Source: a virus (lineage: Duplodnaviria; Heunggongvirae; Uroviricota; Caudoviricetes). Taken from it: a DNA stretch of 64,000 bases. The notes under the pieces were generated by a model. The model saw only the letters and a program-made list of their open reading frames with translations, had not been told where the DNA came from and searched no databases. A program made the translations under genes and the position numbers. Numbering within the stretch: position 1 is the stretch's first letter; each line of letters begins with the position of its first letter. The stretch is taken from positions 109,277-173,276 of IMG/VR virus record IMGVR_UViG_3300012286_000299, one strand, 5' to 3'. Below are positions 6,274 to 33,619 of the stretch, one piece after another.

Positions 6274-7509
6274 ATGGAAAAGAAAAACAACATAGATTCT
6301 CAGTATATTAAGCTACTAGAGGATATTTTAGAAAATGGTATTAAAAAACAAACAAGAAATGGTGAAACTATTTCAGTATTCGGAAGACAAATACGTCACG
6401 ATATGAAAGACGGTTTTCCGTTGCTTACAACCAAGAAAATGCCGTTCAAAACAATCGTAACAGAACTTCTTTGGTTCTTACGAGGTGATACCAATATTAA
6501 GTATTTGGTTGATAATAATTGTCATATTTGGGATGGTGATGCTTATAAGAATTATATAAATACCGCACCACCTACATTAGATGGGAAGTATTTATCACAA
6601 CCAGAATTTATTCATTGGATAAAAACAGATGATGAGTTTGCTAAGAAGTGGGGTGAGTTAGGTCCAATTTACGGTAAGCAATGGAGAGATATTCCTGTAA
6701 TAAAAGATGGAGATGTAGAAGGTCATAAGATATTAAGTAGTATAGACCAAATCCAAAACCTAATCAACGACCTTAAAACAAATCCAGACTCAAGACGATT
6801 AATGGTTAATGCTTGGAATGTTGGAGAATTAGACCAAATGGTTCTTCCACCTTGTCATTATGGATTTCAAGTTTATACTAGAGAGTTGACTAAACAGGAA
6901 CGTTGGATGGCTTATTGTAATAAATGTAATGAATTAAAAACAGAATCAATTATAGGTTCTACCGATGATAAAGTAATGGAAAGTTATTATCAAGAATATA
7001 ACATACCAACACGAGCAATCTCTTTAATGTGGAATCAACGTTCAGTGGATACATTCTTAGGTTTACCATTTAATATTGCTTCTTATGGATTGTTGTTGGA
7101 AATCATTGCTGAAATCGTTAACATGGTTCCTGACCAATTGATTGGTAATCTTGGTGATACACACTTGTATTCAAATCATATTGAACAAGCAAAAGAACAG
7201 ATTGGAAGAGAGCTTAATGAAGATGAGAGATATGAATTAGTAACCCAGCAAATGAGTAAACTAAGAGCGATCAGAGATGAAGATTACATTAATTACAATA
7301 TTCCAACTAGAACAAGACAACCTTATTCTTTACCTAAAGTAAGAATCAATACTGAATTCTGGAACCCTGGTACAGAAGATGGATGTGGAATGGGACCAGG
7401 AACTTATACAAAAGATATAGGTGCTCTTGTAGAAGGAATGGAAGTAAATGATTTTCAAATTGAGGATTATCAATCACATCCAACAATCAAAGCACCCTTA
7501 TCAAATTAA
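6274..7509 (+). CDS. thymidylate synthase (ThyA) family enzyme with two large insertions (TS, or dUMP hydroxymethylase-type)
   Basis: ThyA motifs are present: LWFLRGDTN, GPIYGKQWR, SRRLMVNAWNVGEL..LPPCH (active-site Cys), QRSVDTFLGLPFNIASY (Asn, hence dUMP-type) and GDTHLYSNHIEQAKEQ, with a ThyA-like C-terminus DFQIEDYQSHPTIKA. It is 411 aa against about 265 aa for ThyA, because of inserts of about 45 aa and about 60 aa. Confidence 0.75.
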   Translation: MEKKNNIDSQYIKLLEDILENGIKKQTRNGETISVFGRQIRHDMKDGFPLLTTKKMPFKTIVTELLWFLRGDTNIKYLVDNNCHIWDGDAYKNYINTAPPTLDGKYLSQPEFIHWIKTDDEFAKKWGELGPIYGKQWRDIPVIKDGDVEGHKILSSIDQIQNLINDLKTNPDSRRLMVNAWNVGELDQMVLPPCHYGFQVYTRELTKQERWMAYCNKCNELKTESIIGSTDDKVMESYYQEYNIPTRAISLMWNQRSVDTFLGLPFNIASYGLLLEIIAEIVNMVPDQLIGNLGDTHLYSNHIEQAKEQIGRELNEDERYELVTQQMSKLRAIRDEDYINYNIPTRTRQPYSLPKVRINTEFWNPGTEDGCGMGPGTYTKDIGALVEGMEVNDFQIEDYQSHPTIKAPLSN

Positions 7510-8763: not shown

Positions 8764-8924
8764 GATCATTTTACGTTATTGCATTAGCAATTATTTTATT
8801 ACCTATACCTTATTTTACAGGATTACCACAATGGTTAGCTTTAATACCAACTGCTTATTTGGTTTGGATATTTATAACCTCTTCTTGGTATGCTATTAAA
8901 CGTACATTCTTTAACAAAGACTAA
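8760..8924 (+). CDS. hypothetical small membrane protein
   Basis: 54-aa ORF with two hydrophobic helices, ATGA/TAATG coupled to its neighbours. Confidence 0.3.
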   Translation: MRSFYVIALAIILLPIPYFTGLPQWLALIPTAYLVWIFITSSWYAIKRTFFNKD

Positions 8925-9403
8925 TGATCTACACAATACAAAAAGGAAGTCATAGGAGTACCTGGTTACCTAAATTTAATACAAATACAATAATAAACTT
9001 TAAGTTTAAATTTTTATCTGATCCTTCATATATTTTAGGTAATAAATTAGATCAAGAAGACACTAACAAAATATTTGGAATATCAGATTCATGGTATCAT
9101 CGTAGACATTCAGTTAGATTAGGTTGGAGATATGATGACAAATTGCAAAAATCTATACTTTGTGTGTATTACTACAGAGATAGTAAACATTATACTCAAG
9201 ATTTAGGTGAAATGTATCAAGATAAAACATATTATGGTTTTATATCAATGTATAAAGATGAGTACATGATAGCATGTTTAGGAGATGTAATAACAATTCC
9301 AAGAACATCAAAATGGTGGGGTCCTCGATATTTATTGTTCCCATACTTTGGGGGACAACAAGTGGCACCAAAACAATTTAAAATAGAATTAACAAACTGG
9401 TAA
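8924..9403 (+). CDS. hypothetical protein
   Basis: 159-aa ORF immediately upstream of the deazaguanine genes. Confidence 0.45.
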   Translation: MIYTIQKGSHRSTWLPKFNTNTIINFKFKFLSDPSYILGNKLDQEDTNKIFGISDSWYHRRHSVRLGWRYDDKLQKSILCVYYYRDSKHYTQDLGEMYQDKTYYGFISMYKDEYMIACLGDVITIPRTSKWWGPRYLLFPYFGGQQVAPKQFKIELTNW

Positions 9404-9405
9404 AA

Positions 9406-9882
9406 ATGGGAAAATATCAATCAACAAAATTATTCGAGAACTACTCAGTAGCTATCAGACAATGGAAAGCACAACACTCACATTGTCAATTACTTCACGG
9501 ATATGCTTTAGAATTTAAAGTATGGTTTGAATCAATCGAACCTTTAGAAGAAAATCAATTAGACGAAATGAACTGGATCATGGACTATGGTGGGTTTAAA
9601 GAACAACCACAAGGAAACGGTTTAAAAGCATGGATGGACTATATGTGGGATCATACTCTACTAATCGAGAAAGATGATCCGCAATTAGAAACATTCCAAT
9701 ACATGCAAGAATTAGGTTTGTGTCATTTAAGAGTTATGGATAAGATTGGAGCTGAATCAGCTGCTAAACTAGTCTTCGATAAATTCAATGATGTAATGTC
9801 TAAGAATGGAGGAGGTAGAGTAAAAGTAGTAAAAGTAGAGTGCTGGGAAGCTCCTAAGAATTCATCAATTTATGGAGAGTAA
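9406..9882 (+). CDS. queD: 6-carboxy-5,6,7,8-tetrahydropterin synthase-like (QueD/PTPS family)
   Basis: About 158 aa with a C-x4-HGY..E.K motif (HCQLLHGYALEFKVWFE) resembling the PTPS/QueD Cys-x-His-Gly-His zinc site. Context between QueE-like and FolE genes. Confidence 0.5.
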   Translation: MGKYQSTKLFENYSVAIRQWKAQHSHCQLLHGYALEFKVWFESIEPLEENQLDEMNWIMDYGGFKEQPQGNGLKAWMDYMWDHTLLIEKDDPQLETFQYMQELGLCHLRVMDKIGAESAAKLVFDKFNDVMSKNGGGRVKVVKVECWEAPKNSSIYGE

Positions 9883-10747
9883 ATTTCTACAAGAGAATGG
9901 TTTTTTCGATGATAATACAGGAAAAATATCTCTAGCAGATAAATTAGAAGGTAAAACAAAACAGTATATGAAATTAAAAAGAATAGAAGATTACAACAAA
10001 ATACTGCCGATAGTAGAAGTCTATACAGCAGTACAATCAGAAGGAAGTAGAGCAGGATATCCTACAGTAGTAATTCGAACAAGTGGCTGTACTCACCGCT
10101 GCTGGTTCGGTGAAGGAGGTTGGTGTGATAGTCCATACACATCAATTCATCCAGAGAAAGGGAAATATTCATTCCAGAATATAATTGAAGCATACGACAG
10201 AAATCCTCACATCACAGAGATGATGTTAACTGGAGGATCACCAACAATGCATCCAGCATTAGTAAACGAATTAACACATTTTGCACATGAAAGAGGAATT
10301 TTTATTACTATGGAAACAGAGGGATCACATTACTTGGAAACAGACTTTCCGATTAATTTACTTAGCATTAGCCCTAAGTTTTCAAATTCAATTCCAGCAT
10401 TGGGAACCCGCACTCCAGGCGGTGACATCGTTGATGAAAAGATGGTTAAACAGCATAACAAACTTAGATTAAATTATGATGCAATGTCTAAGTCAATTGC
10501 GTATCATTCTGATTATCACCTGAAACCAGTGTGGGATGGAGAGGATGAAGGAGCATTGAAAGAGATTATGGCTTGCATTAAAATTCTAGATATTCCAGAA
10601 GACAAAGTTTGGTTCATGCCAGCAGGAGATTCAAGAGAGGCTTTATTCAAATCATATCCTAAAATGTTTGATTGGGTAAGAGATAATGGATATAGATTGA
10701 CTTGGAGACCACACATCATTGCATTTGAAGATAAAAGAGAAGTATAA
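9872..10747 (+). CDS. queE: radical-SAM 7-carboxy-7-deazaguanine synthase-like (QueE)
   Basis: Cys triad in SGCTHRCWFGEGGWCDSPY (non-canonical spacing, as known for some QueE), a glycine-rich SAM motif MLTGGSPTMHP, and a position adjacent to queD/folE. Confidence 0.6.
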   Translation: MESKFLQENGFFDDNTGKISLADKLEGKTKQYMKLKRIEDYNKILPIVEVYTAVQSEGSRAGYPTVVIRTSGCTHRCWFGEGGWCDSPYTSIHPEKGKYSFQNIIEAYDRNPHITEMMLTGGSPTMHPALVNELTHFAHERGIFITMETEGSHYLETDFPINLLSISPKFSNSIPALGTRTPGGDIVDEKMVKQHNKLRLNYDAMSKSIAYHSDYHLKPVWDGEDEGALKEIMACIKILDIPEDKVWFMPAGDSREALFKSYPKMFDWVRDNGYRLTWRPHIIAFEDKREV

Positions 10748-10803
10748 TATCATTTGGATATTAAAATAGAATTTATTACATTTACCTATTAAAAAAATTA
10801 TAA

Positions 10804-11499
10804 ATGACAGAAAATAGAAAAAAAGTCCACAACGATTTAGAAGTGGTACAAGTGGGATTTGCTAATGGTGTAGCACCTGGATTTCCCCTAAATGAGATTG
10901 AAAAACAAGGTATGATTGAGCAGGCTGCTGAAGCCTATGGTCAGTTTTTAACAGCATTAGGTTGTGATTGGAAAAATGATCCTAATAGTGCTGATACACC
11001 AAGACGTGTAGCTAAAGCCTATGTTAACGATCTATGGAAAGGTAGATATACTCCAATGTCTGAAATTACTTCATTCCCAAGTGATGGTTATGATGGGATT
11101 GTGATTGAAAGAAATATCCCTTTAACATCAATGTGTTCACATCACCACCAAACAATTGGAGGGGTAGTTCATATTGGGTATGTGGTAGGTGAAAATGGTA
11201 GAGTAATTGGTTTATCTAAATTAAACCGAATTGTAGAGCATTTTGGGCGTAGAGGTGCTATTCAAGAACAATTAACCTCTGCTATTCATCAAGCTGTAGA
11301 TAAAATTTGTGAAAATAATAGAGGTGTAATAGTTTCTATTGTTGGTACTCACAATTGCGTTTCTTGTAGAGGTGTTAAGCATCAAGGTGCTTCAATGATT
11401 ACAACTAAAGCATCAGGTGTTTTTATGGAGAATGGAAACTTAGCAAGAGAAGAATTCTTTGATTCAATTAAAATTAATAATGGTAATCATCCAGTATAA
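10804..11499 (+). CDS. folE: GTP cyclohydrolase I
   Basis: SMCSHHHQTIGGVVHIGYV matches the FolE zinc-site/active-site block (SMCEHH...VHIAY) in a 231-aa protein. Confidence 0.8.
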   Translation: MTENRKKVHNDLEVVQVGFANGVAPGFPLNEIEKQGMIEQAAEAYGQFLTALGCDWKNDPNSADTPRRVAKAYVNDLWKGRYTPMSEITSFPSDGYDGIVIERNIPLTSMCSHHHQTIGGVVHIGYVVGENGRVIGLSKLNRIVEHFGRRGAIQEQLTSAIHQAVDKICENNRGVIVSIVGTHNCVSCRGVKHQGASMITTKASGVFMENGNLAREEFFDSIKINNGNHPV

Positions 11500-11903
11500 T
11501 GGCTTTAAGAATTCATAATAAAATTTATTTAGGTTGGGATGATATTAATGATTTAATTGATACATTATGTTCAAAAATTATTACTGATCTTCCTAATATT
11601 GATTCAGTTCATGGTATAAAACGCGGTGGGTTAATTCCTGCCGTGTTGGTATCACATAAATTAGGTTTACCGTGGTCTGACGTGATGTTACCTAATACTT
11701 TAGTAATAGATGATATTTGTGATACTGGAGTTACTTTAAAAAATACAGTTGGAACTTATACGGCTGCTTTACATTATAAACCTCATACTTCTTGTTTTAT
11801 ACCTAATATTTATGCCCACGAACATAAAGGTGATGAATGGATTATCTACCCTTGGGAAAGAAAAGATTCAGAATCTATACAAGATTATTTAAAAACAAAA
11901 TAA
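11499..11903 (+). CDS. phosphoribosyltransferase (type I PRT) domain protein
   Basis: PRPP-binding motif LVIDDICDTGVTLK (compare HGPRT VVDDIVDTGGT) in a 134-aa protein. TAATG-coupled to folE. Confidence 0.5.
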   Translation: MALRIHNKIYLGWDDINDLIDTLCSKIITDLPNIDSVHGIKRGGLIPAVLVSHKLGLPWSDVMLPNTLVIDDICDTGVTLKNTVGTYTAALHYKPHTSCFIPNIYAHEHKGDEWIIYPWERKDSESIQDYLKTK

Positions 11904-11907
11904 AAAC

Positions 11908-12099
11908 ATGGCAAAAACTGAACAAATTCTCCAAATTACAGAAGTTATTTCAAATTTAGGAAAAGATCTTTTATCTGCAAATGAATCTAAAACAAATGCA
12001 TCATCTGAAGATCTACTTTTAATAGAACAAAATATTCAATATCTTGAAACTGTTTTACAAGAACATAAAGATAAACTTCAACAACTTATTTCTGAATAA
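11908..12099 (+). CDS. hypothetical protein (coiled-coil)
   Basis: 63-aa ORF. Confidence 0.35.
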   Translation: MAKTEQILQITEVISNLGKDLLSANESKTNASSEDLLLIEQNIQYLETVLQEHKDKLQQLISE

Positions 12100-12102
12100 T
12101 AA

Positions 12103-12492
12103 ATGACAGAAAATTTTGATCCAAATGCTCCTTCAAGAGGATTAGGTGATACAATTGCTAAATTTACTCATACAACTGGTATAGCTAAAGCTGTAGAAGT
12201 TGTAACGGGTGCTTTAGGAATAGAAGATTGTGGTTGTGGAAGAAGACAAGAATGGGTTAATAATTTAATTCCATATGAGAATCAGCCCAACCATAATGTT
12301 CAATATGATCCTAATAATGCTACAGAAGTAGAAGAAGGGATATATGAGGTAATGTATGAGATCCATGCTACTAAAGAAGGTAATAAATTTGATTACAAAG
12401 TAGGTGAAAAAATTTTGATAAATGAAAATCATTTATTATATTCAAATTGGCCTTATTATATAATGATAGGCGCAGTTAAAAAACAAAATTAA
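12103..12492 (+). CDS. hypothetical protein
   Basis: 129-aa ORF. Confidence 0.45.
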   Translation: MTENFDPNAPSRGLGDTIAKFTHTTGIAKAVEVVTGALGIEDCGCGRRQEWVNNLIPYENQPNHNVQYDPNNATEVEEGIYEVMYEIHATKEGNKFDYKVGEKILINENHLLYSNWPYYIMIGAVKKQN

Positions 12493-12501
12493 ATTAAAGT
12501 T

Positions 12502-13026
12502 ATGATTACAAAACCCAATGTACCTTTTATTGACGAGGTAGAAGAATTTAATGCCGTGATGGGCAAACCAAACAATTATGAACCAATTATTCCCGAAAGA
12601 AAAGAGTGGGAGTTCGTGTACAATTTCATCCTTGAGGAACTTGAAGAATATCGAGAAGCTTGCGAAGCAGGAAACATCGTGGAAGTTTTGGATGCTTTGT
12701 GCGATATTACTTATGTTGCCACTGGGAACGGTGCTATGCTACATGGCCTTAAGGGTAAGGTATGGCCGGCATATCAAGAAGTACAAGCTTCAAATTTATC
12801 GAAAGCTTGCCAAACTGAAGACGAAGCTAAAGCAACTGTCATTCAAAGATCGAGTGAACAAGGTGAAGAATGTCATTACGAAAAAGTTGGAGAATATTTC
12901 ATCGTATATCGAACAAGAGATAGAAAAGTAATGAAAAACGTAAATTACTTCAAACCAAACTTAAAACAATTCTTTACAGATAAAGAAATTCAAAAATCAT
13001 ATTTAATACAAATAACAGGAAATTAA
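12502..13026 (+). CDS. MazG-like nucleoside triphosphate pyrophosphohydrolase (putative)
   Basis: An all-alpha NTP-PPase-like motif: EELEEYREACEAGN..EVLDALCDITYVATG (E-E-x-x-E ... D metal-site pattern). Confidence 0.45.
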   Translation: MITKPNVPFIDEVEEFNAVMGKPNNYEPIIPERKEWEFVYNFILEELEEYREACEAGNIVEVLDALCDITYVATGNGAMLHGLKGKVWPAYQEVQASNLSKACQTEDEAKATVIQRSSEQGEECHYEKVGEYFIVYRTRDRKVMKNVNYFKPNLKQFFTDKEIQKSYLIQITGN

Positions 13027-13041
13027 TTTAAACTAGAAAAC

Positions 13042-13464
13042 ATGACAGCAATACAAGTATTAGGATTAATAGCATTTATAATAGCATTATCAGGTGTATT
13101 AGGGTTCTTATTTCAAGCCGGAAACGACGAAGAAGAAGAAGTTACATTTACTACTCCTGAGTATACTAAAGAAGAACTAGAAAATATTAAAGCTGCTGAA
13201 GCAGAATATAATAAACCTGTAGTAGCCGAAGAACTTGAAGTTACAGAACCTGAATTTGTAGCAAAAGGACTTAGTAGTACACCAGTAGCTCCGGAATTTC
13301 CAAACATAGGAAAGGATCTTACAAAAGTATTCCCACCAGATGCAACTATTAACACAGAAGAAATAGTAGAAACTAAATTGAAAAAGGTAAAAGAACCTAA
13401 ATCAGAGTTTCCAATTGATAAACCAAAGAAAAAAAGAAAATATTATCCTAAAAAAGCAAAATAA
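13042..13464 (+). CDS. membrane-anchored acidic protein
   Basis: N-terminal transmembrane helix, then a low-complexity E/P/K-rich region ending KKKRKYYPKKAK. Confidence 0.4.
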   Translation: MTAIQVLGLIAFIIALSGVLGFLFQAGNDEEEEVTFTTPEYTKEELENIKAAEAEYNKPVVAEELEVTEPEFVAKGLSSTPVAPEFPNIGKDLTKVFPPDATINTEEIVETKLKKVKEPKSEFPIDKPKKKRKYYPKKAK

Positions 13465-13539: not shown

Positions 13540-14085
13540 ATGGATAAAAAAGTATGCAGTAAATGTAAAATTGAAAAAACTTTAGAAGAGTTTTCAATAG
13601 ATTTGTCTACTAAAAGTGGTAGAAAAAGTCAATGTAAAGAATGTAGAAAATTAATTTCTAAAAAGGAATATAAAAGTGATCCTTTATCTCATAATGTTAG
13701 AACTAGTGCTTATTATAAGGATAATAAAGAGTCTACTAGGAAGCAACAACGTGATTATGAAAGAAAACGTTTAAAAGTAGATCCCTTATTTAAATTAGGA
13801 AAATCAATGAGATGTCATTTGTATAGAATATTACAAGGACAAAAATCCATGAGTACTAAAGAATTATTAGGGTATAATGTTGAAGAATTAAAAATTCATA
13901 TTGAATCTCTTTGGGTAGAAGGAATGAATTGGGAAAATTGGGGTAAAGAATGGGAAATTGATCATATTTATCCTCTATCTCAATATTTAAAAGAAGGAGA
14001 AACTAGGCCTAGTATAATTAATAGTCTTAAAAATCTTCAACCTATAAGTAAAATTGAAAATCGAAAAAAATCAAATAAGTTATAA
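13540..14085 (+). CDS. HNH homing-type endonuclease
   Basis: N-terminal Cys4 (CSKCKIEK...CKECRK) and an HNH core EIDHIYPLSQ...NLQPISKIENRKK. Paralogous to 50911..51546. Confidence 0.65.
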   Translation: MDKKVCSKCKIEKTLEEFSIDLSTKSGRKSQCKECRKLISKKEYKSDPLSHNVRTSAYYKDNKESTRKQQRDYERKRLKVDPLFKLGKSMRCHLYRILQGQKSMSTKELLGYNVEELKIHIESLWVEGMNWENWGKEWEIDHIYPLSQYLKEGETRPSIINSLKNLQPISKIENRKKSNKL

Positions 14086-15812
14086 TGTATAAGAATATTG
14101 TTACGAATTCATTAGGGAAAAATAGATATAAGGTCATTTTATACACTGATGATGGAGTTGAAGAACATGAATTTCAAAATTATGCATATGAAGTGTGTAG
14201 CCAAAACCAGGCTACACATTTTGGTCTAAATGGAGAACCTTTAATGAAAACTACTTATTGGGATAAAACCAATCCCTTTATTCATTATCATGATATGCCT
14301 ATTCATCAAAAATTTTTAATTGATAAATATGGTACTAATGATGAACCCTCAACTACACATCAAGAAATATTTTTTGATATTGAGATTGAAATGGGAGGTG
14401 CTCTTACACCTGAGTACATTAGAAAAGCTCCAAAACCTGTTACTTCAATTGCTTGGTGGCATAAACAAGAAGATAAATGGTATATTTTAATTTTAGATAA
14501 AGATAATAAAATTGAAAAAACTACTATAGAGAATAAATATATTATTCCTGTACCTAACGAAAGAGAATTATTAAATAAGTGGTTAAATTATTTGAACAAA
14601 GTTAACCCTGATATCTTAATTGGCTATAATAGTGATTACTTCGATATACCTTACCTATACTATAGAATACTAAATCAATTAGGTGAACGTAGAGCTAATG
14701 CTTTCTCTCCAATAGGTAAAGTTAAAGAACAAAAACATTCAAATGAATCAGGAATGGTTTTTTGGAATGAAGAACAACCTATAAGAATAGAAGGAATGTA
14801 TTCTTTGGATTACATTCGCTTACATAAAAAATATTCGTTTGCAGATGAACCATCTTATAAATTAGATGCTTTAGGAGAAAAGTATTGTAAATTAGGTAAA
14901 ATTGAATATGAAGGTAGTTTAGACAGATTATTTGAAACTGATAAAGAAAAATTCATTGAATATAACTTTCGAGATGTTGAAATCCTAAAAGCACTTGATA
15001 ATAAATTTAATTATATTAGTTTAACTAAAAATCTAGCTCATAAGGGTAAAATCCATTATGATGATGTTTATCAATCATCTAAAATTCATGATGGAGCTAT
15101 TTCAGCATTCTTATTATCAGAAGATATAATTCCTCCTTCACGAGATAGAAACCCAATTAAAAAAGCTAATTACGCTGGTGGTTATTTGTTTTGTCCTAAA
15201 GCAGGGTTATATCGCTATATGTTTGATGAGGATTTAACTTCACTATACCCATCAATTATTATGTCTCTTAACATTGGTAAAGAAACATTAATAGGTAGAA
15301 TTATTGATTTAAATGATAGAAACAATCATTTAGGTTTAAATGATTTAATAAATGATATTGAAGATAGACCTCGTACTATGGAATGGTTTACTAATAAAGA
15401 TAAGTTCAGTAAAATTGATTGGACTTCTTCTAAAGTAGTTAAACTAATTCAACAATATAATTTGGCTATCTCAGCAAATGGTGTTATCTTTCGTACAGAT
15501 AAAGAGTCTGTATTATCAACTATTCTGAATAAGTGGTTTGATGAAAGGGTTTTATACAAAAATAAAATGAAAGCTGCATATAAAGCAGGAGATACAGTAG
15601 GTGGTGAGAAATATCATTTATTGCAATATACAATGAAAATCTTACTTAATTCACTTTATGGTGCTACAGCATTACCTTCATTTAGATATGGGAATGTAAT
15701 TCTATCAGAAGCAATCACTTTAAGTGGACAACGTATTATTCAAGAATCAGCACTTTGTGCTAACAGACATATGAACAAAGTTATTCGTGGTGAAATTAAA
15801 TTAGAGATATAA
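14085..15812 (+). CDS. family-B DNA polymerase, N-terminal fragment (3'-5' exonuclease plus polymerase motifs A and B)
   Basis: Exo I FDIEIEM, Exo II YNSDYFDIPYL, motif A DLTSLYPSIIMSLNIG, motif B KILLNSLYGA. Stop lies 50 aa after motif B. Confidence 0.85.
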   Translation: MYKNIVTNSLGKNRYKVILYTDDGVEEHEFQNYAYEVCSQNQATHFGLNGEPLMKTTYWDKTNPFIHYHDMPIHQKFLIDKYGTNDEPSTTHQEIFFDIEIEMGGALTPEYIRKAPKPVTSIAWWHKQEDKWYILILDKDNKIEKTTIENKYIIPVPNERELLNKWLNYLNKVNPDILIGYNSDYFDIPYLYYRILNQLGERRANAFSPIGKVKEQKHSNESGMVFWNEEQPIRIEGMYSLDYIRLHKKYSFADEPSYKLDALGEKYCKLGKIEYEGSLDRLFETDKEKFIEYNFRDVEILKALDNKFNYISLTKNLAHKGKIHYDDVYQSSKIHDGAISAFLLSEDIIPPSRDRNPIKKANYAGGYLFCPKAGLYRYMFDEDLTSLYPSIIMSLNIGKETLIGRIIDLNDRNNHLGLNDLINDIEDRPRTMEWFTNKDKFSKIDWTSSKVVKLIQQYNLAISANGVIFRTDKESVLSTILNKWFDERVLYKNKMKAAYKAGDTVGGEKYHLLQYTMKILLNSLYGATALPSFRYGNVILSEAITLSGQRIIQESALCANRHMNKVIRGEIKLEI

Positions 15813-16075
15813 TGGCATTAAAAGGACAATCAATTAGAAACGGGGTTACTATTAATATAAATGGTGTTAAAGCCGAAAAACAATTAGTTATTGATTTATC
15901 TGAAAATTGGGATGAATCACAAGAAAGATTCTTTAAGAAAATGCTTAAACAAGGAGGAAAATGTAAAGTTAATGGAAACTCATTTGAAATTATCCTCAAA
16001 GAAAGATCTGATATAGATTCAAAAGGAAATAGACCTATTAATTTACCACCAGTACCAGGAGAAAGAACATTTTAA
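15812..16075 (+). CDS. small ORF inside the polymerase split
   Basis: 87-aa ORF in a different frame, exactly filling the 264-nt insertion between the two polymerase cistrons. Confidence 0.35.
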   Translation: MALKGQSIRNGVTININGVKAEKQLVIDLSENWDESQERFFKKMLKQGGKCKVNGNSFEIILKERSDIDSKGNRPINLPPVPGERTF

Positions 16076-16076
16076 T

Positions 16077-17012
16077 ATGAAACATTTAGAAGATACCCCA
16101 TGGTGGATATGTGATGAAGGTGATTTTAATTTTTGTGCTTATGTTGATACAGATTCTAATTATTTCAATGCTGAGCCATTATTGAAACATTTATATCCTG
16201 ATTTTGATGAAAAAACTGATCAAGAAAAAGATGATTTATTAGAGAAAGTAGCTCTTAAGTACCAAGATATTATAACTGAACACTATGATATACTTGCTAA
16301 AGAAGCCTTTAATATTAGTACACACCGATTAGAAATGAAAACTGAGTGTGTTATTCGTTCTGCTTATTTTAGAGCTACAAGACGTTATGCTCAATGGATT
16401 ACTAAAAAAGAAGGTATAGCAAAAGAGGAATTAGACATTAAAGGATTAGAATTTAAAAAAGCTAATTTCCCTAAATATTTTGGAAAGTTTTATCAAGAAA
16501 TTCTTGAATTAATCATTAAAGGTACTTCACAGAGTATTATAGATAAGAAAATTCATGAATTTAGACAAGAAGCAACCTCAACTGATATAGATTTTACCCT
16601 TATAGGTAACCCAACATCAGTTAAAACATTAAATGAGTATATAGCTTCCCACCCTAAACCAGGTAAAATATTATCTGAAATAAAATCAGGAGCTGGTGCA
16701 TCAGTTAAAGCTTCTATCAAACATAATGATTTATTACGATTTTGGCAATTAGATTCAAAACATAGTCAAATAGTACAAGGTGATAAAGTAAAATGGGTTT
16801 ATTTAAAAAATAACCCTTATAATATAGAAGCTATTGCATTTTTAGAATTTGATATGGCTGATAAAATCAAAGACTTCATTAATGAATATATTGATAGAGG
16901 GAAAAGTTTTGAAACTATATTACAGAAAAAACTACAAGGCTTCTATGATGACCTTGAATGGATGTTACCACCAGCAAATCCACTAATACATAAATTTTTT
17001 ACATTCAACTAA
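16077..17012 (+). CDS. family-B DNA polymerase, C-terminal fragment (motif C plus thumb)
   Basis: Own ATG; motif C CAYVDTDSNYF 22 aa from the start; KKANFPKYF (KxY-like). Confidence 0.8.
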   Translation: MKHLEDTPWWICDEGDFNFCAYVDTDSNYFNAEPLLKHLYPDFDEKTDQEKDDLLEKVALKYQDIITEHYDILAKEAFNISTHRLEMKTECVIRSAYFRATRRYAQWITKKEGIAKEELDIKGLEFKKANFPKYFGKFYQEILELIIKGTSQSIIDKKIHEFRQEATSTDIDFTLIGNPTSVKTLNEYIASHPKPGKILSEIKSGAGASVKASIKHNDLLRFWQLDSKHSQIVQGDKVKWVYLKNNPYNIEAIAFLEFDMADKIKDFINEYIDRGKSFETILQKKLQGFYDDLEWMLPPANPLIHKFFTFN

Positions 17013-18299: not shown

Positions 18300-18602
18300 A
18301 TGGCAAATCCTCAATTCAAAGGTAGACAAAAAGGATCTATCAAAAAAACATCAACAATTTCCGATCCATCATTGGGTAATTTTAAAATTATCGTAGATGA
18401 TGAAAGTTATAATCTAGTTTTAACTGACCCTGAAACTGGAAAGGAAAAAATTATTGGTTATTATACTAGATTAACTAATGCTTTAAAGTATGTAGTTAGA
18501 ACCCAAACAGTTGAGAAAAAACCAACTTATACTATTAAAGAATATATCCAAGAATTAGAAACAGTTTTAAACAATTTAAACAATTTAATTAACAATGAGT
18601 AA
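18300..18602 (+). CDS. hypothetical protein
   Basis: The track ORF 18243 starts inside the upstream hairpin and leader. The ATG at about 18300 (MANPQFKG...) follows an AT-rich leader. Confidence 0.4.
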   Translation: MANPQFKGRQKGSIKKTSTISDPSLGNFKIIVDDESYNLVLTDPETGKEKIIGYYTRLTNALKYVVRTQTVEKKPTYTIKEYIQELETVLNNLNNLINNE

Positions 18603-18888
18603 ATTAGAATCAAGAGGTGGTAGTATCATCTTAAAACAACTTGAAGAAAATGAAATGAAAGTTGGTAACATCATTATCCCTGATAATGGTCATGAAAAAT
18701 CACTTGTAGCTGAAATTATAGCAGTATCAGATGTATTTAATTGGCATAGAGGAGAATTTGTACCATCAGATCTAAAAATAGGTCAAAAAGTAGTAATCCC
18801 ACCAATGGGAGCACAAAAATTAACATTAGATAATGTAGATTATTTAATCATTTCACAAGAACAAATCCCAGCAATAATAGTAGATTAA
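18595..18888 (+). CDS. groS: co-chaperonin GroES (Cpn10)
   Basis: 97 aa with the GroES fold pattern: GGSIILKQ..EMKVGNIIIPD...EIIAVSD...GQKVVIPPMGAQKL..DNVDYLIISQEQIPAII. Directly upstream of groEL. Confidence 0.75.
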   Translation: MSKLESRGGSIILKQLEENEMKVGNIIIPDNGHEKSLVAEIIAVSDVFNWHRGEFVPSDLKIGQKVVIPPMGAQKLTLDNVDYLIISQEQIPAIIVD

Positions 18889-18890
18889 TT

Positions 18891-20531
18891 ATGACAGAAA
18901 CAGTATTTGGACCCGAATTAAAATCAAAACTATTAGAAGGAGTTAGAAAACTCAATAATAGTGTATCATCTACCCTAGGACCAGCAGGTAGAACAGTATT
19001 AATTAAAGGTGAGTATGGTCAATTAACCGTAACTAAAGACGGTGTATCCGTAGCTAAGGCTTTTAAAGAATTAGAAGATCCAGTAGAATCTACAGGTGCA
19101 GAATTAGTACAAAAAGTATCAGTTAAATCCGCAAATGAAGTTGGAGATGGAACAACTACAGGTACTTTATTAACCTATGCTCTTTTAGAAGAAGGTTTAA
19201 AACATGTTAATGCAGGACAAAATGCAGTAGAAATTAAAAAAGGTATTGATGCTGCTGTAGAAGAAATTAAATCCTCACTTAACAATTTAACAGAAGATAT
19301 TTCTGATAACCAACAAATTAAAGAAGTTGCTACTATTTCAGGTAATAACGATGAAGAAATTGGTAATTTAATTGCTACTGCTTTAGAAAAAGTAGGCAGA
19401 GATGGAGTAGTTGCTATTGAAGAGTCTAAATCAGGCGAAACTTCACTTGAAGTTGTAGAAGGTATGCAGTTTGATAGAGGTTACAAATCACCTTATTTTG
19501 TAACTGATAATAATACAATGACAGCTGTATTAGATAACCCATATATTTTAATTTATAATGGTAGAATTACTAACCACCAAGAATTAATTCCAGCTTTAAC
19601 TTTAGCTAACACTGAAAAACGTTCATTATTAGTAGTAGCAGAAGATATTGATGGTGAAGCATTAGCAGTAGCTATTGTTAATAAAATGAGAGGTATTGTA
19701 AATGTTGTTGCTGTTAAAGCTCCTGATTTTGGAGATCGTAGAACAATGGCTTTAGAAGATTTAGCTATTATTACAGGTGGTCAAGTTTTATCTAAAGATA
19801 AGGGGCATAAATTAGAAAAAATTGATGTTAATACCTTAAAACAATGTTTAGGTACATCTCGTACTGCTACAATTGGAAAAGAGAAAACTACTATTGTAGA
19901 TGGTAAAGGTGAAGAAGAAGCTATTACAACTAGAGCTCAAGAAATTAAAAAACAAATTGATGACGCTGGTTCACCATTTGAAAAAGAAAAATTACAAGAG
20001 CGTTTAGGTAAGATGATTGGTGGAGTAGCTATTATTAACGTAGGTGGTAATAGTGAATTAGAAATCAAAGAGAAAAAAGATAGAGTAGAAGATGCTTTAT
20101 TCGCTACAAGAGCTGCTTTAGAAGAAGGTATTGTAGTAGGTGGTGGTACTGCTTTATTATATGCTAGAAAATCTATTACATTTGAAGGTGCAAATGATTT
20201 TGTTTTAGGTAAAAAAATAGTTTATAAAGCTGTAACAGCACCCTTCCAGAAAATTTTAACTAATGCCGGACACGATCTTGTAGAAGTACAATATTTAGGT
20301 TCTAAATTAACTGATTCTGAAAAAGGAAGTAATTGGGCAGGTCTTAATTATAAAGATTTATCAACAATGGATTTCAAATCAGCAGGTATTATTGATCCTA
20401 AAAAAGTAACTCGTATTGCATTAGAAAATGCAGCATCAGTTGCAGGTACAATTTTAACAACTGAATCTGTAATCTACGAGAAAAAAGAAGACAATAAAGA
20501 AGAAATCAATCCTATGCAAGGAATGATGTAA
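18891..20531 (+). CDS. groL: chaperonin GroEL (Cpn60)
   Basis: LGPAGRTVLI, AVKAPDFGDRR, GGGTALL and the C-terminal Gly-Met tail PMQGMM, in 546 aa. Confidence 0.9.
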   Translation: MTETVFGPELKSKLLEGVRKLNNSVSSTLGPAGRTVLIKGEYGQLTVTKDGVSVAKAFKELEDPVESTGAELVQKVSVKSANEVGDGTTTGTLLTYALLEEGLKHVNAGQNAVEIKKGIDAAVEEIKSSLNNLTEDISDNQQIKEVATISGNNDEEIGNLIATALEKVGRDGVVAIEESKSGETSLEVVEGMQFDRGYKSPYFVTDNNTMTAVLDNPYILIYNGRITNHQELIPALTLANTEKRSLLVVAEDIDGEALAVAIVNKMRGIVNVVAVKAPDFGDRRTMALEDLAIITGGQVLSKDKGHKLEKIDVNTLKQCLGTSRTATIGKEKTTIVDGKGEEEAITTRAQEIKKQIDDAGSPFEKEKLQERLGKMIGGVAIINVGGNSELEIKEKKDRVEDALFATRAALEEGIVVGGGTALLYARKSITFEGANDFVLGKKIVYKAVTAPFQKILTNAGHDLVEVQYLGSKLTDSEKGSNWAGLNYKDLSTMDFKSAGIIDPKKVTRIALENAASVAGTILTTESVIYEKKEDNKEEINPMQGMM

Positions 20532-23619: not shown

Positions 23620-25044
23620 ATGAAAGAAGGTTATATACCAAAAGAACAAAGAAAAAAGATATTATTCATTTGTGATGATATCAGAATGCACTCGGGTGTA
23701 GCTACAATGGCTCGAGAAATAGTTTTAGGAACCTCTCACCATTATAACTGGGTAATAATTGGAGCAGCTATTGATCATCCTGAATCAGGACAAAGATTAG
23801 ACTTATCTGATGCTACTAACAAAGAAACTGGAAATGAGGATACAAATGTAATTATCTATCCTAGTAATGGATATGGAAGTGCTGATTTAATCAGATATAT
23901 GATAAAGAATGAAAAACCTGATGGGTTAATGTTCTTTACGGATCCAAGATATTATGACTGGTTATTTGCTATCGAAAATGAAGTAAGAAAACAAATACCA
24001 ATGATTTACTTAAACATTTGGGATGATTTACCTGCTCCACTTTATAATAGAGCATTCTATGAATCATGTGATGCTTTATTAGCTATCTCAAAACAAACCA
24101 AAAACATTAATGAAATGGTTTTAGGTAAAAAAGCAGATGGTAAAGTTATCTCTTATGTACCTCATGGTATTAATGAAAAAATGTTTTATCCTATAGAAGA
24201 TAAAACACAGTTACAAGAAACTAAGAAAAAATTATTTGGAGATAAAGAATTTGATTTTGTATTATTCTTTAATTCACGTAATATTAGGAGAAAATGTACT
24301 AGTGATTTATTAGCAGCTCATAAAATGTTTTTAGATTCTTTACCTAAAGAAAAAGCTGATAAAATTGCCTTAGTATTACATACACAAGTTGTAGATAATA
24401 ATGGTACTGATTTAGATGCTGTTAGAACTTTATTATTTGGTAAGAAATCAAACATATTCTTTTCAGATCAAAGAATTGATACTGCTGAGTTAAATAGAAT
24501 TTATAATATATCTGATGCTGTAGTATTACCTTCTTCAAATGAAGGATGGGGATTAGCAATAACTGAAGCTATGATGGCTGGTAAAATGATAATCGCTAAT
24601 GTAACTGGAGGTATGCAAGATCAAATGCGTTTTGAGGATGAAAATGGTAAATGGATTGAATTAACACCTGAATTTCCTTCTAATCATTTTGGTACTTATA
24701 AAAAATGTGGTAAGTGGGCTGTACCTGTATTCCCTAATAACATGTCATTAGTAGGTTCACCTATAACTCCTTATATTTGGGATGATAGATTAGATTTTAG
24801 AGACTTAGCAAATGCTATTAATCAGGTTTATGAATTATCTCCTGAAGAAAGAGTAGAAAATGGTAAAGCAGCTAGAGAATGGGTAACTTCTGATGAATCT
24901 GGTATGAGTGCTAGAATGATGTGCAATAATGTAATTAAAGATATTGATTTAACTTTAGAAACATTTAAACCTAAAAAATCATTTGATCTACTTTTAGTAG
25001 AAGATTTGGAACCTCTAGAATTAGTTCATAAATTAACGTATTAA
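23620..25044 (+). CDS. glycosyltransferase, GT-B fold (GT4-like)
   Basis: E-x7-E motif region LPSSNEGWGLAITEAMMAGKMII; 474 aa. Confidence 0.7.
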   Translation: MKEGYIPKEQRKKILFICDDIRMHSGVATMAREIVLGTSHHYNWVIIGAAIDHPESGQRLDLSDATNKETGNEDTNVIIYPSNGYGSADLIRYMIKNEKPDGLMFFTDPRYYDWLFAIENEVRKQIPMIYLNIWDDLPAPLYNRAFYESCDALLAISKQTKNINEMVLGKKADGKVISYVPHGINEKMFYPIEDKTQLQETKKKLFGDKEFDFVLFFNSRNIRRKCTSDLLAAHKMFLDSLPKEKADKIALVLHTQVVDNNGTDLDAVRTLLFGKKSNIFFSDQRIDTAELNRIYNISDAVVLPSSNEGWGLAITEAMMAGKMIIANVTGGMQDQMRFEDENGKWIELTPEFPSNHFGTYKKCGKWAVPVFPNNMSLVGSPITPYIWDDRLDFRDLANAINQVYELSPEERVENGKAAREWVTSDESGMSARMMCNNVIKDIDLTLETFKPKKSFDLLLVEDLEPLELVHKLTY

Positions 25045-25102
25045 TTAGATAAGATAAGTTTTCCATTGGGTACATATATTTATTATCATAAATACGTACC
25101 TA

Positions 25103-25774
25103 ATGGATTATCAAAGAATTTACAACCAATTAATAGAAAAAGCTCAAAGTAGAACCTTAGAAGGTTATATTGAAAAACATCATATTATCCCTAAATGTCT
25201 AGGAGGAAGTAATGATAAAGAAAATTTAGTAGAATTAACAGCAAGAGAACATTTTTTATGTCATATGTTACTTTGTGAGATTTATCCTAAAGAAAATAAA
25301 CTAAAACATGCCTTATTTTTAATGTCTATTGGTAAACAAAGGATTAAAGAAAAACATTATGTTGTTGGTTCTAGAGTTTATGAAAGGCTTAAAACTGAAT
25401 ATTCTCAATTTTTAACAGGTAAAAAACAATCACAAGAAACTAAAGATAAAAAGAGTAAAGCTATGTTAGGAATTTGGGAAGATAAAACCCAAGAAGAAAA
25501 ATCTAAGATAGGACAAAAAAGATGGGACACTAGAATCAAAAATGGGACTACTAATATTAAAAGTATTAATAGAAGTAAATCATTAAAGGGTAGAGAAATT
25601 ACATGGGACCGAGGAGTTAATAAAATCATTATTCAATATGATAAACAAAATAACTTTATTAAAGAATGGTCTAGTATATCAGAAGCTCAAAGGCAAATAG
25701 GAGGGGATATTAAAGGTGCTTTAGCAGGGAGGCAAAAAACTGCTGCAGGTTTTATTTGGAAATACAAAAACTAG
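25103..25774 (+). CDS. HNH homing-type endonuclease
   Basis: EKHHIIPKCLGGSNDKENLVELTAREHFLCH (HNH core) plus a C-terminal IENR/NUMOD-like region. Sits between two glycosyltransferase genes. Confidence 0.6.
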   Translation: MDYQRIYNQLIEKAQSRTLEGYIEKHHIIPKCLGGSNDKENLVELTAREHFLCHMLLCEIYPKENKLKHALFLMSIGKQRIKEKHYVVGSRVYERLKTEYSQFLTGKKQSQETKDKKSKAMLGIWEDKTQEEKSKIGQKRWDTRIKNGTTNIKSINRSKSLKGREITWDRGVNKIIIQYDKQNNFIKEWSSISEAQRQIGGDIKGALAGRQKTAAGFIWKYKN

Positions 25775-25797
25775 TTATTATATTAAAATAAAAAAAA

Positions 25798-27105
25798 ATG
25801 AAAAATACATTTGTGATATCATGTCCCATAGATTGTTATGCAGGGTATGGAGCACGTTCACGTGATTTAGTTAAAGCGTTAATTAATTTAGATAAATACG
25901 ATGTTAAAATAATGCCTCAACGTTGGGGAAATACACCTTGGAGTTTTATTGAAGATCATCAAGAAGAATGGGGATTTTTACAACCACATATTTTAACAGG
26001 TCAGTTAACTCAACAACCTGATATTTGGGCTCAAATAACAGTACCTAATGAATTTCAAGCTATTGGAAAATATAATATTGGAATAACAGCGGGTATCGAA
26101 ACTACTATTTGTGCTCCTCAATGGATTGAGGGTATGAATAGAATGAGTTTAAATTTAGTTTCATCAGAACATGCTAAAAAAGTATTTCAAGATTCTAAAT
26201 TTCAAAAACATGATGAAAGGACTAAACAAGTTGTTGGTGTAATAGAATTAACATCTCCTATTGAAGTATTATTTGAAGGAGTAGATATTGTTAAATACTT
26301 TGCATCTACATTAACTCCTACTTCCGAAATAAAGCAAGCCTTAGATAATGTAAAAGAAGAGTTTGCATTTTTATTTGTGGGTCATTGGCTTCAAGGTGAT
26401 TGGGGTCAAGATAGAAAAGATGTAGGAGGGTTAGTTAGAGTATTCTTAGAAGCCTTTAAAAATAAATCTAAAAAACCTGCTCTTATATTAAAAACAATGT
26501 CAGGTCCAACTAGTATTATAGATAGAGATAATATCTTGAAAAAAATAGACGTTATAAGACAATCTATGCCTACTAAAAACTTACCTAATATTTACTTATT
26601 TCATGGTGAAATATCAGACGATGAAATGAATCAATTATATAACCATTCTAAAGTAAAAGCAATGGTTAGTTTTACTAAAGGAGAAGGATTTGGTAGACCT
26701 TTACTTGAATTTACTCAAACTAAAAAACCAGTTATTGCTTCAAATTGGAGTGGACAATTGGATTTCTTAAACCCTGAATTTACTTCATTAATACCTGGTA
26801 CTTTAACTAATATTCATCCATCTGCTCAAGTTAAGGATATGTTAATTGATGGTTCACAGTGGTTTACAGTAGATTATGGATTTGCTGGTGGTATATTAAG
26901 AGATTATTTTGAAAATTATAAAAAATATCAAGATAATGGTAAACGTTTAGCACATTATTGTAAAACTAATTTCTCATTTGAGAAAATGCAAGAAAAATTA
27001 GATACTATATTAACTGCTAATATACCTGAGTTTCCAAAGCAAGTGCAATTGAAATTACCTCAATTAAAAAAGGTTGAGTTACCTAAATTAAAAAAAGTAG
27101 AATAA
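25798..27105 (+). CDS. glycosyltransferase, GT-B fold (putative)
   Basis: FTKGEGFGRPLLEFTQTKKPVIASNWSGQLDFL resembles the GT4 E-x7-E donor-binding block; 435 aa. Confidence 0.5.
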   Translation: MKNTFVISCPIDCYAGYGARSRDLVKALINLDKYDVKIMPQRWGNTPWSFIEDHQEEWGFLQPHILTGQLTQQPDIWAQITVPNEFQAIGKYNIGITAGIETTICAPQWIEGMNRMSLNLVSSEHAKKVFQDSKFQKHDERTKQVVGVIELTSPIEVLFEGVDIVKYFASTLTPTSEIKQALDNVKEEFAFLFVGHWLQGDWGQDRKDVGGLVRVFLEAFKNKSKKPALILKTMSGPTSIIDRDNILKKIDVIRQSMPTKNLPNIYLFHGEISDDEMNQLYNHSKVKAMVSFTKGEGFGRPLLEFTQTKKPVIASNWSGQLDFLNPEFTSLIPGTLTNIHPSAQVKDMLIDGSQWFTVDYGFAGGILRDYFENYKKYQDNGKRLAHYCKTNFSFEKMQEKLDTILTANIPEFPKQVQLKLPQLKKVELPKLKKVE

Positions 27106-27106
27106 A

Positions 27107-27559
27107 ATGAAAGATAAATTATCTATATGCCCACGTTGCGGGAGTGATGCTTGTTATGTCACTCCTGTAAATGAAGTAAAAAACAACTATTTCTGTTTTG
27201 GATGTGGTTTTCAAACAAATGACCTAATGAAAGAAGGTGAATTTGATTTTGAAACATATGAAGAACCATTACCTGAACTATATAAAGATCTTAAAAACAC
27301 TGATTCAGAAAAACGTGTTTGGTATCCAATTACTATTAATATTCAGGATAAAGGAACGGTATTTGCCAATGGAAAAACCAAAGATAATTGGACATGGGCA
27401 GGAGTAAAGGCCGTTGAAGTAAGCGAAGAAGAAAAAGGTAAATTTAAAATACCTGGTACTGAAGATTACTATACTCATAAAACTGATATTAAATCTTTAA
27501 AGAATTATCCACAAGATGATTTTATTGAAGCCCTAGATTATATAGGTTTTTATAATTAA
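27107..27559 (+). CDS. zinc-ribbon protein
   Basis: CPRCGSDACYV...CFGCGF at the N-terminus. Confidence 0.4.
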   Translation: MKDKLSICPRCGSDACYVTPVNEVKNNYFCFGCGFQTNDLMKEGEFDFETYEEPLPELYKDLKNTDSEKRVWYPITINIQDKGTVFANGKTKDNWTWAGVKAVEVSEEEKGKFKIPGTEDYYTHKTDIKSLKNYPQDDFIEALDYIGFYN

Positions 27560-27562
27560 TAT

Positions 27563-28180
27563 ATGAGAATAAGTTATGCAATTCCTGTTTGTAATGAACA
27601 TGAAGAATTAATGAGATTACTAAGCATCCTCATCACCAATAAAAGAGATGAGGATGAAATAGTAGTTCAATGTGATCAGGGTAATACTACACCTGAAGTA
27701 TATAAAGTATTAGACCAATTTTTTGGTAGAATAAGTGTTATAGAATTTCCATTAAAAGGTAATTTTGCGGCTTTTAAAAATAATTTAAAGAAGCATTGTA
27801 CTGGAGAATGGATTTTTCAAATTGATGCTGATGAATACGTAACTATTGAATTTTTACAAAGTTTACATTTAATTTTACAAGATAATCCTACAACAGAAGT
27901 ATTTTTGCTTCCTAGAATTAATACTGTAGAAGGATTAACTCAAGAGCATATTAATAAATGGAGATGGAATGTAAATGAGAAAGGATGGGTTAACTTCCCA
28001 GATTTACAACCTCGTATACTTCAAAATTCACCTAAAATTAATTGGGGTAATAAAGTACATGAAGTACTAATGGGTCATAGTACATGGTCTACTTTACCAT
28101 TAGAAGATGATTATTGTCTGTATCATCCAAAACATATTGAAAGACAAGAACGACAAAATAATTTATACGATTTATTATGA
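27563..28180 (+). CDS. glycosyltransferase family 2-like (putative)
   Basis: N-terminal ISYAIPVCNEHEEL resembles the GT2 ...IPxYNE... start, with EIVVQCDQGNTT at the DxD-like position. Confidence 0.4.
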   Translation: MRISYAIPVCNEHEELMRLLSILITNKRDEDEIVVQCDQGNTTPEVYKVLDQFFGRISVIEFPLKGNFAAFKNNLKKHCTGEWIFQIDADEYVTIEFLQSLHLILQDNPTTEVFLLPRINTVEGLTQEHINKWRWNVNEKGWVNFPDLQPRILQNSPKINWGNKVHEVLMGHSTWSTLPLEDDYCLYHPKHIERQERQNNLYDLL

Positions 28181-30322: not shown

Positions 30323-30324
30323 AA

Positions 30325-31871: not shown

Positions 31872-31877
31872 AAAATT

Positions 31878-33618: not shown

Positions 33619-33619
33619 T

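Follow-up and report, generated by a model that had tools for sequence, protein, structure and literature searches.

The gene at positions 11499-11903 (plus strand) of a 64,000-nucleotide stretch of a Caudoviricetes genome (IMG/VR record IMGVR_UViG_3300012286_000299, positions 109,277 to 173,276; hereafter, the window) encodes a 134-residue type I phosphoribosyltransferase (PRT) that lacks the mobile-loop hairpin of its relatives, and to which we refer as a mini-PRT. Our comparisons indicate that the mini-PRT is an accessory component of the phage 7-deazaguanine DNA-modification modules, in which FolE (GTP cyclohydrolase I) is its closest conserved partner, and that it travels with DpdA, the base-exchange enzyme of these modules, instead of substituting for it. 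From the same comparisons we infer its substrate, its catalytic competence without the loop, and its physiological role; tentatively, we propose that it recycles guanine to GTP for FolE.

A loop-less phosphoribosyltransferase of the XGPRT branch

The open reading frame (ORF) opens with an ATG that overlaps the stop codon of folE in the sequence TAATG (11497-11501, plus strand; context gtaTAATGgct), an arrangement that suggests translational coupling of the two genes. A spurious ORF was ruled out by the dN/dS ratio, which is 0.15-0.25 against eight homologues (dS is saturated for two more distant ones), and by the more than one thousand homologues found (1019 at E<=1e-3, counted as 90%-identity clusters); the gene evolves under purifying selection.

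The first-pass annotation had described the gene as type I PRT-like, with a loop for binding phosphoribosyl pyrophosphate (PRPP) in LVIDDICDTGVTLK (residues 68-81, nucleotides 11700-11741). This description was confirmed by matches to PF00156 (E=4.5e-7, 29.7 bits, the Pfam gathering threshold being 26.3) and to PHROG 8995, “phosphoribosyl transferase” (7e-14), by the profile of its family, and by the fold of an AlphaFold2 model. Solved purine PRTs were matched with E-values of 8e-11 to 2e-3 by the single sequence and solved PRTs with E-values of 3e-27 to 1e-13 by the family profile (3e-27 for 1vdm, about 1e-20 for 4z1o and 4trb, and about 1e-14 for xanthine-guanine PRT, XGPRT). The model has a predicted local distance difference test (pLDDT) score of 92.8 and shows strand 36-39, the RGG loop, helix 45-55, and strand 67-74. 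Foldseek searches with it returned a probability of 1.00 for many PRT structures, with an alpha/beta core and the pyrophosphate (PPi) loop after the first core strand, and the best folds in the PDB were hypoxanthine-guanine-xanthine PRT (HGXPRT), purine PRT, and XGPRT (E about 1e-9; query-normalised TM-score, TMq, 0.69-0.75). Similarity of this degree is not to be expected by chance.

The residues expected to carry the chemistry are conserved among sixty diverse members of the family. In XGPRT, RGG forms the PPi loop and the acidic pair DD binds the ribose. The PPi loop of the mini-PRT, K41-R42-G43-G44 (11619-11630), retains R42 in 59 of the 60 members and both glycines in all of them. The PRPP-binding loop, L68-T79 (LVIDDICDTGVT; 11700-11735), consists of a hydrophobic strand, an acidic pair, and x-x-(D/A)-(T/S)-G-x-T, as in type I PRTs; D71, D75, and G77 are invariant, D72 is kept in 56 members, and the 5’-phosphate loop (S/T)76-G77-x-T79 is present and conserved across relatives. 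A basic residue at position 94 (K/R, 53 members) precedes the hood motif W114-I-I-Y-P-W-E120 (11838-11858), which aligns with TWIEQPWD of XGPRT and in which W114 is found in 58 members, P118 in 59, W119 in 57, and E120 in all 60. D75, W114, and P118-W119-E120 thus align with D92, W134, and PWD of XGPRT. According to structural work on XGPRT and HGPRT (hypoxanthine-guanine PRT), the Asp equivalent to D75 is the general base at the purine N7, the Trp stacks on the purine, and the P-W-(D/E) element contacts the purine edge.

The closest solved structures are those of P. horikoshii 1VDM and of S. solfataricus HGXPRT (4Z1O/4ZFN/5BQP) and adenine PRT (4TRB), followed by bacterial XGPRT. The archaeal proteins give the best matches in both sequence and fold (family profile, 3e-27 to 4e-20; Foldseek, about 1e-9), and 1VDM shares with the mini-PRT the helix motif GGLIPAV.LSH; they differ in that they are cellular housekeeping enzymes and have 24-25 extra residues of their own between the helix and the PRPP loop. 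The XGPRTs of E. coli and Yersinia (Gpt; PDB 1A95-1A98, 1NUL, 5XTK) resemble the mini-PRT in their fold (TMq about 0.7), their small size, the aligned RGG of the PPi loop, the PRPP loop VIDDxxDTGxT, the K/R before the hood, and the hood W-I-x-x-P-W-(D/E). They share only about 20% identity with it, and the mini-PRT lacks some 21 residues of their mobile-loop beta-hairpin, has a C-terminal S..IQDY tail that is absent from XGPRT, is encoded by viruses, and has FolE beside it. Taken together, sequence, profile, and fold indicate that the mini-PRT descends from the XGPRT/archaeal HGXPRT (Gpt) branch and belongs with the 6-oxopurine PRTs, which bears out the earlier suggestion of a purine PRT.

In type I PRTs, the segment between the PPi-loop helix and the PRPP loop is a beta-hairpin that carries a mobile catalytic loop (loop II). 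In the mini-PRT, a short linker (residues 57-67; 11667-11699) stands in place of the beta2/flexible loop II/beta3 hairpin of its relatives, and in the model, helix 45-55 and strand 67-74 are joined by a plain coil. The spacing from RGG to DD is 26 residues here, with a family median of 28.5, compared to 48 in E. coli XGPRT, and alignments leave 21-25 residues of 1VDM, 4Z1O, 4TRB, and Yersinia XGPRT without a counterpart. We conclude that the mini-PRT has lost the mobile-loop hairpin, which is one respect in which it differs from every solved relative. Its score against the NCBIfam xanthine-PRT equivalog NF006613, 46.3 bits compared to a cut-off of 138 and in a match split into two stretches, is correspondingly low. 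The alternative that the first-pass annotation had set against a deazapurine enzyme, homology to a housekeeping HGPRT with canonical substrate residues, holds in part: the homology is present, as are the canonical RGG, DD, Asp, stacking Trp, and PWE, but the protein is not the housekeeping equivalog. The S..IQDY tail is semi-conserved in the family, and we speculate that this tail, or a partner protein, may serve as a lid in place of the loop.

The mini-PRTs form a large family of proteins of about 115-140 residues. In an exhaustive search of 1.84 billion representative sequences (50%-identity clusters), 568 clusters matched at E<=1e-10 and 3314 did so at E<=1e-3; the best 150 matches have a median length of 134.5 residues, and 129 of them do not exceed 145. 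In a comparison with 185,579 genomes of prokaryotic species, no match exceeds 42% identity; the best are mostly full-length archaeal Gpt-type genes, and the few short ones lie on contigs of metagenome-assembled genomes; the loop-less form is, therefore, essentially viral. On the same grounds, the capture of a housekeeping XGPRT from a host was ruled out. Existing database labels read “phosphoribosyltransferase” or “hypoxanthine PRT”. Longer members of the family (182-326 residues) contain no informative second domain according to Pfam, and FolE is the sole fusion partner found.

Coupling to FolE and the company of DpdA

Directly upstream of the mini-PRT, in the same orientation and almost without gaps, lie the genes of QueD (6-carboxytetrahydropterin synthase, 9406-9882), QueE (the radical SAM enzyme 7-carboxy-7-deazaguanine synthase, 9872-10747), and FolE (10804-11499), all on the plus strand. 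The coupling to folE and to the deazaguanine genes, which had been noticed in the window, recurs in many independent phage lineages, including cases in which PRT and FolE are fused. We collected 152 PRT loci (the window and 151 viral or metagenomic loci), whose PRTs cluster at 50% identity into 33 lineages. At least one of FolE, QueD, QueE, QueC, and DpdA3 lies within 10 kb of the PRT in 23 of these lineages. Most of the remaining ten have longer PRTs (141-196 residues; three have PRTs of at most 140), lengths that are consistent with a retained hairpin. Distant members of the family that were picked blindly also lie beside QueD, QueE, or FolE (P0163, 44% identical; P0218, 35%; P0219, 34%); of the other blind picks, one is on a 4-kb contig and one, with a truncated flank, has no Que genes.

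Among the partners, FolE is the closest. It is fused to the PRT or lies within 250 bp of it in 16 of the 33 lineages, compared to seven for QueE, and the adjacency is maintained even where the order is inverted, from FolE followed by PRT in the window to PRT followed by FolE in phage immuto. Fusions with the PRT at the N-terminus and FolE at the C-terminus were found in two IMG/VR phages (L141, 2239-3129; L138, 9989-10915) and in cultured Stenotrophomonas and Pseudomonas siphophages, in which they are labelled only as GTP cyclohydrolase I (e.g., NC_072504 gp47; L280, 5754-6647). The fusion proteins are about 297-309 residues long, and their first 115 residues or so are a mini-PRT with all the core motifs; they differ from the window's protein in the covalent attachment of FolE and in their operon, which reads QueE-QueC-QueD-[PRT-FolE]-DpdA-clamp-PolA in the cultured siphophages and contains a canonical DpdA and a family-A polymerase. 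With the fusion as query, no fewer than 120 distinct clusters (90% identity; about 297 residues) were recovered from metagenomes at 89-100% coverage. All core motifs are kept in 116-120 of 120 fusions (RGG in 116, DD in 120, the Asp equivalent to D75 in 119, PWE in 119-120), and the counterparts of D75, W114, and P118-W119-E120 in 118-120 of them.

The association also holds from the side of the PRT in cultured phages: of 50,697 records, 18 contain the PRT, and at least 16 of these encode FolE, which is found in 376 records (0.74%) overall. The PRT is thus rare, not universal, among phages with FolE. Gene content around it varies. In L044 (about 10001-13428), L045, and L060, the order is QueE, PRT, DpdL-like, AAA_18-like ATPase, FolE, DpdA3, so that the PRT directly precedes a candidate decarboxylase of 7-carboxy-7-deazaguanine (CDG), DpdL, and a kinase-like ATPase. 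In locus L140 of lineage 1, Pfam identifies QueE, FolE, and QueD near the PRT, and the other neighbours tested, which belong to unrelated families or are unmatched, may include a divergent DpdA.

The exceptions to this linkage are those that would be expected if the PRT were a generic purine-salvage auxiliary gene of an AT-rich lytic phage, placed behind folE by accident within a block of nucleotide metabolism. In one sublineage (L025, L026, L036, and L058), the PRT is surrounded by ligase and HNH genes, and Que genes are absent from the 10 kb around it; a Brevundimonas phage has it inside a block of ribonucleotide reductase (RNR) and dNMP-kinase genes; and the PRT of Cellulophaga phage phiST is near RNR, 20 kb from the Que genes. 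Such a reading is, however, hard to reconcile with the 23 of 33 lineages in which Que genes lie within 10 kb, with the excess of FolE among PRT-containing records over its 0.74% background, and with the FolE fusions, which chance placement does not explain, and we consider it highly improbable.

The fusions and the conserved association with FolE, the most conserved features of the family, could instead point to a regulatory, non-catalytic PRT-like domain that binds PRPP, GMP, or another guanine nucleotide and tunes the activity or assembly of FolE. The PRT-fold regulators PyrR and PurR offer a loose analogy. The family-wide absence of the loop II hairpin, the missed NCBIfam equivalog threshold, and the presence among the structural neighbours of a PRT-like protein solved with ppGpp bound (PDB 5vog) would all suit such a domain. 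We nevertheless regard this possibility as improbable: the residues of the chemistry, namely the PPi-loop Arg, the ribose-binding Asp pair, the Asp aligned with the general base, and the 5’-phosphate loop, are conserved under purifying selection, and other genes often lie between a stand-alone PRT and FolE.

A related module is that of immuto. Between positions 9000 and 13000, the window is about 79% identical to immuto DNA where the two align (53% of the stretch), and both have the same QueD-QueE-...-FolE-MazG module, with MazG and QueE proteins that are 88% identical. The PRT orthologue, immuto26A_60 (131 residues, 61% identical), is known from automatic annotation only and lies between QueE and FolE. 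Unlike in the window, it is followed within 5 kb by DpdA3, the formyltransferase DpdN, a Tmk-like kinase, and QueF. The DNA of immuto has lost its dG peak and carries fdPreQ1, with G fully replaced (Hutinet et al. [quoted passage not shown] The word phosphoribosyltransferase is not mentioned in that paper (PMC10516641). The fully dDG-substituted phiST has a 142-residue Gpt-like PRT of its own, gp064 (L283, 3989-4417), which is of the full-length type, lies near the RNR gene about 20 kb from the Que/DpdA3 cluster, and is the best structural match to the window's protein in BFVD.

With respect to DpdA, our results depart from the first-pass annotation, which had placed the PRT in contrast to DpdA-type base exchange. 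Searches of the 64-kb window with tblastn and with hidden Markov models built from relatives found no DpdA3, QueC, QueF, DpdN, DpdL, or Tmk; for DpdA this absence carries no information, as the window extends no more than 11.5 kb upstream of the PRT. Relatives have DpdA3 on the contig that carries the PRT, 8-32 kb upstream of it; where it is missing from the 10 kb around the PRT, long contigs show it farther upstream on the same strand, at about 13 kb in a 105.8-kb contig (L010/L237), about 12 kb in a 105.7-kb contig (L020/L244), and about 32 kb in a 168-kb contig (L019/L261). The left end of the window is most closely related to a 161.7-kb contig with an 86% identical homologue of the window's first ORF (L284), and there a QueD-DpdA3-QueC block (L247) is found some 53 kb upstream of that homologue. 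A reading of the window as part of a phage without DpdA was, therefore, rejected, DpdA3 being located about 12-53 kb upstream in relatives, beyond the window.

DpdA3 is present on eight of the nine contigs of at least 100 kb that have a mini-PRT in a Que cluster, and in the ninth the PRT lies 6.7 kb from the contig end. A canonical DpdA accompanies the PRT in four loci (L280, L136, L128, and L138), which include operons with PRT-FolE fusions; three of the four belong to lineages that gave no DpdA3 match. Conversely, no PRT match at E<=1e-3 was obtained among the cultured-phage records for the Campylobacter phages of the CP220 type, which possess DpdA3 and are said to be completely modified (PMC10516641); full replacement, then, does not depend on the PRT. 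The PRT is, hence, an accessory that travels with DpdA and not a substitute for it. In L002, whose PRT is the closest to that of the window (87% identical), the DpdA3 frame (332-1135) is broken by a stop (332-901/905-1135), which could be a sequencing error or a pseudogene.

Substrate and role of the mini-PRT

The aligned active-site residues suggest that the mini-PRT is a 6-oxopurine PRT, most likely for guanine, that is dedicated to the modification module and recycles guanine to GTP for FolE; we hold this proposal to be plausible, though not quite probable. FolE uses GTP, and enzymes of the TGT (tRNA-guanine transglycosylase) family exchange guanine. The deazaguanine pathway consumes one GTP per base through FolE, and a DpdA-type transglycosylase expels one guanine for each deazaguanine inserted. 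By converting guanine (possibly xanthine or hypoxanthine) and PRPP into GMP and PPi, the PRT would return the expelled guanine, together with guanine from degraded host nucleic acid, as GMP to the GTP pool that supplies FolE, closing a cycle from guanine to GMP, GTP, CDG/preQ0, and DNA. Guanine in its free form dissolves poorly and can itself serve TGT-type enzymes as an exchange substrate; the PRT might, in addition, keep its concentration low enough that it would not compete with the deazaguanine base.

This proposal would explain several features of the family. The active site is the same across lineages that differ in their surroundings, from QueC/preQ0-type modules with a canonical DpdA, through those of the DpdL type, to immuto with its fdPreQ1. 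That it is kept despite different end products argues for a common substrate, and recycling would account for its invariance, including the Asp at N7, whether the predicted product is preQ0, fdPreQ1, or dDG. The accompaniment of two DpdA subfamilies by the PRT fits a role that is accessory to base exchange. The preference for FolE, the involvement of two unrelated subfamilies of DpdA, and the dispensability of the PRT in some fully modified phages would likewise be accounted for.

Several points weigh against guanine recycling. The assignment of the substrate relies on aligned residues; 7-deazaguanines share the O6/N1/N2 face of guanine, and only the Asp at D75, which may be kept for structural reasons, would discriminate between them. 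If other type I PRTs are a guide, the missing hairpin should lower catalytic efficiency, unless the S..IQDY tail or a partner replaces the loop, and its loss could open room for a substituent at C7. GMP is two kinase steps away from the substrate of FolE, so a fusion with FolE does not strictly join sequential enzymes. Hosts normally have an Hpt or Gpt of their own. Finally, GTP supply leaves unexplained the conserved neighbour of the PRT, a MazG-like nucleoside-triphosphate pyrophosphohydrolase (12502-13026, plus strand), which accompanies it in 85 of the 107 loci of the window's lineage and has no sequence match in the PDB.

Some of these points would be met if the PRT acted on 7-deazapurines, as the first-pass annotation had proposed, joining PRPP to CDG, preQ0, or another 7-deazaguanine to give a deazaguanine ribonucleotide, in the manner of TubE and ToyH. 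The nucleotide would next enter DNA by way of kinases, ribonucleotide reductase, and the phage polymerase, while the MazG-like enzyme would deplete dGTP. We judge this route unlikely. Its best precedent is TubE of tubercidin biosynthesis in Streptomyces, which was proven experimentally to be a CDG-specific PRT using PRPP and CDG, with decarboxylation following at the nucleotide level (PMC6112128); TubE was aligned there with 4Z1O (PMC6112128). The mini-PRT, which has 4Z1O among its top matches, falls in the same Gpt-like subfamily. TubE and ToyH (toyocamycin) are encoded with FolE, QueD, and QueE homologues, in the case of TubE without QueC, and the window likewise has FolE, QueD, and QueE, with neither QueC nor DpdA found in its 64 kb. 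The likeness between TubE and the mini-PRT is, however, indirect, being established through 4Z1O only; TubE has 194 residues, presumably a full-length protein, and both TubE and ToyH belong to secondary-metabolite clusters without enzymes that insert bases into nucleic acids, whereas the phage PRT travels with DpdA.

The genomic evidence for a deazapurine enzyme is similarly divided. The order PRT, DpdL, ATPase in L044, L045, and L060 parallels that of TubE followed by TubF, a MazG-like pyrophosphohydrolase is conserved alongside the PRT, and both groups of Bacteroidota phages with complete replacement of G, represented by immuto and phiST, encode a Gpt-like PRT. DpdA3 and the proposed decarboxylase DpdL could not be reconstituted in E. 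coli, for which the authors suspect missing components (PMC10516641), and a pocket without the hairpin might be open on its C7 side. Nonetheless, DpdA turns up in every case in which a sufficient part of the genome is visible, and the completely modified phages of the CP220 type gave no PRT match. The PRT is, moreover, fused to FolE in operons with QueC and a canonical DpdA, where the formation of a preQ0 nucleotide would compete with DpdA. The Asp contacting N7, which a 7-carboxylate would adjoin, is invariant, and the active-site residues are constant whatever the predicted end product. There is thus little likelihood, in our estimation, that a dedicated CDG/preQ0 PRT builds a pool of deazaguanine nucleotides together with the MazG-like enzyme, kinase-like proteins, and sometimes DpdL.

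The role of the mini-PRT touches the question of how phages with DpdA3 reach 100% replacement of G (PMC10516641), since it is a conserved partner of clusters in which missing components are suspected. If guanine is recycled, base-exchange modification would acquire a stoichiometric logic, in which each expelled guanine pays for the next deazaguanine, and the PRT would be a practical helper gene for heterologous reconstitution. If, instead, the PRT acts on deazapurines, the conclusion that all such modifications are post-replicative would be overturned, and complete replacement of G in phages of the immuto and phiST types would be at least partly pre-replicative, a parallel for guanine to the PurZ/MazZ/DatZ logic of Z-genome phages, and the PRT would be among the “unknown enzymes” whose absence made the reconstitution of DpdA3 and DpdL fail. 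A full-text literature search, confined to papers outside the subscription-only literature, found none that links a PRT to phage DpdA systems or to guanine salvage in them, and three aspects of the family appear to be undescribed: its architecture without the loop, its restriction to viruses, and its repeated coupling and fusion to FolE.

Other genes of the window

An ORF of 117 residues in an alternative frame of the MazG-like gene (12578-12931) is open in 71 related loci, probably not as a gene but because MazG itself is so highly conserved. Upstream of QueD, after a 3-nucleotide gap, lies an ORF of 159 residues (8924-9403) that has no Pfam or PHROG match and is restricted to the closest sublineage (L006, L007, L009, and L012). 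The thymidylate synthase homologue at 6274-7509 has 411 residues, well above the usual size, with internal insertions; that of immuto has 423.

The gene of the family-B DNA polymerase (13540-17012) is split into ORFs of 575 and 311 residues with an 87-residue ORF between them. An HNH endonuclease gene lies immediately upstream, and the split is common to most relatives. A phage GroEL (546 residues) follows a probable GroES at 18595-20531, a pair also present in immuto, and the block from 23620 to 36384 is rich in glycosyltransferase-like and HAD-hydrolase-like genes. ARAGORN reports a tRNA-like element at 55298-55367 with an abnormal two-base reading of the anticodon loop (“tRNA-???”).

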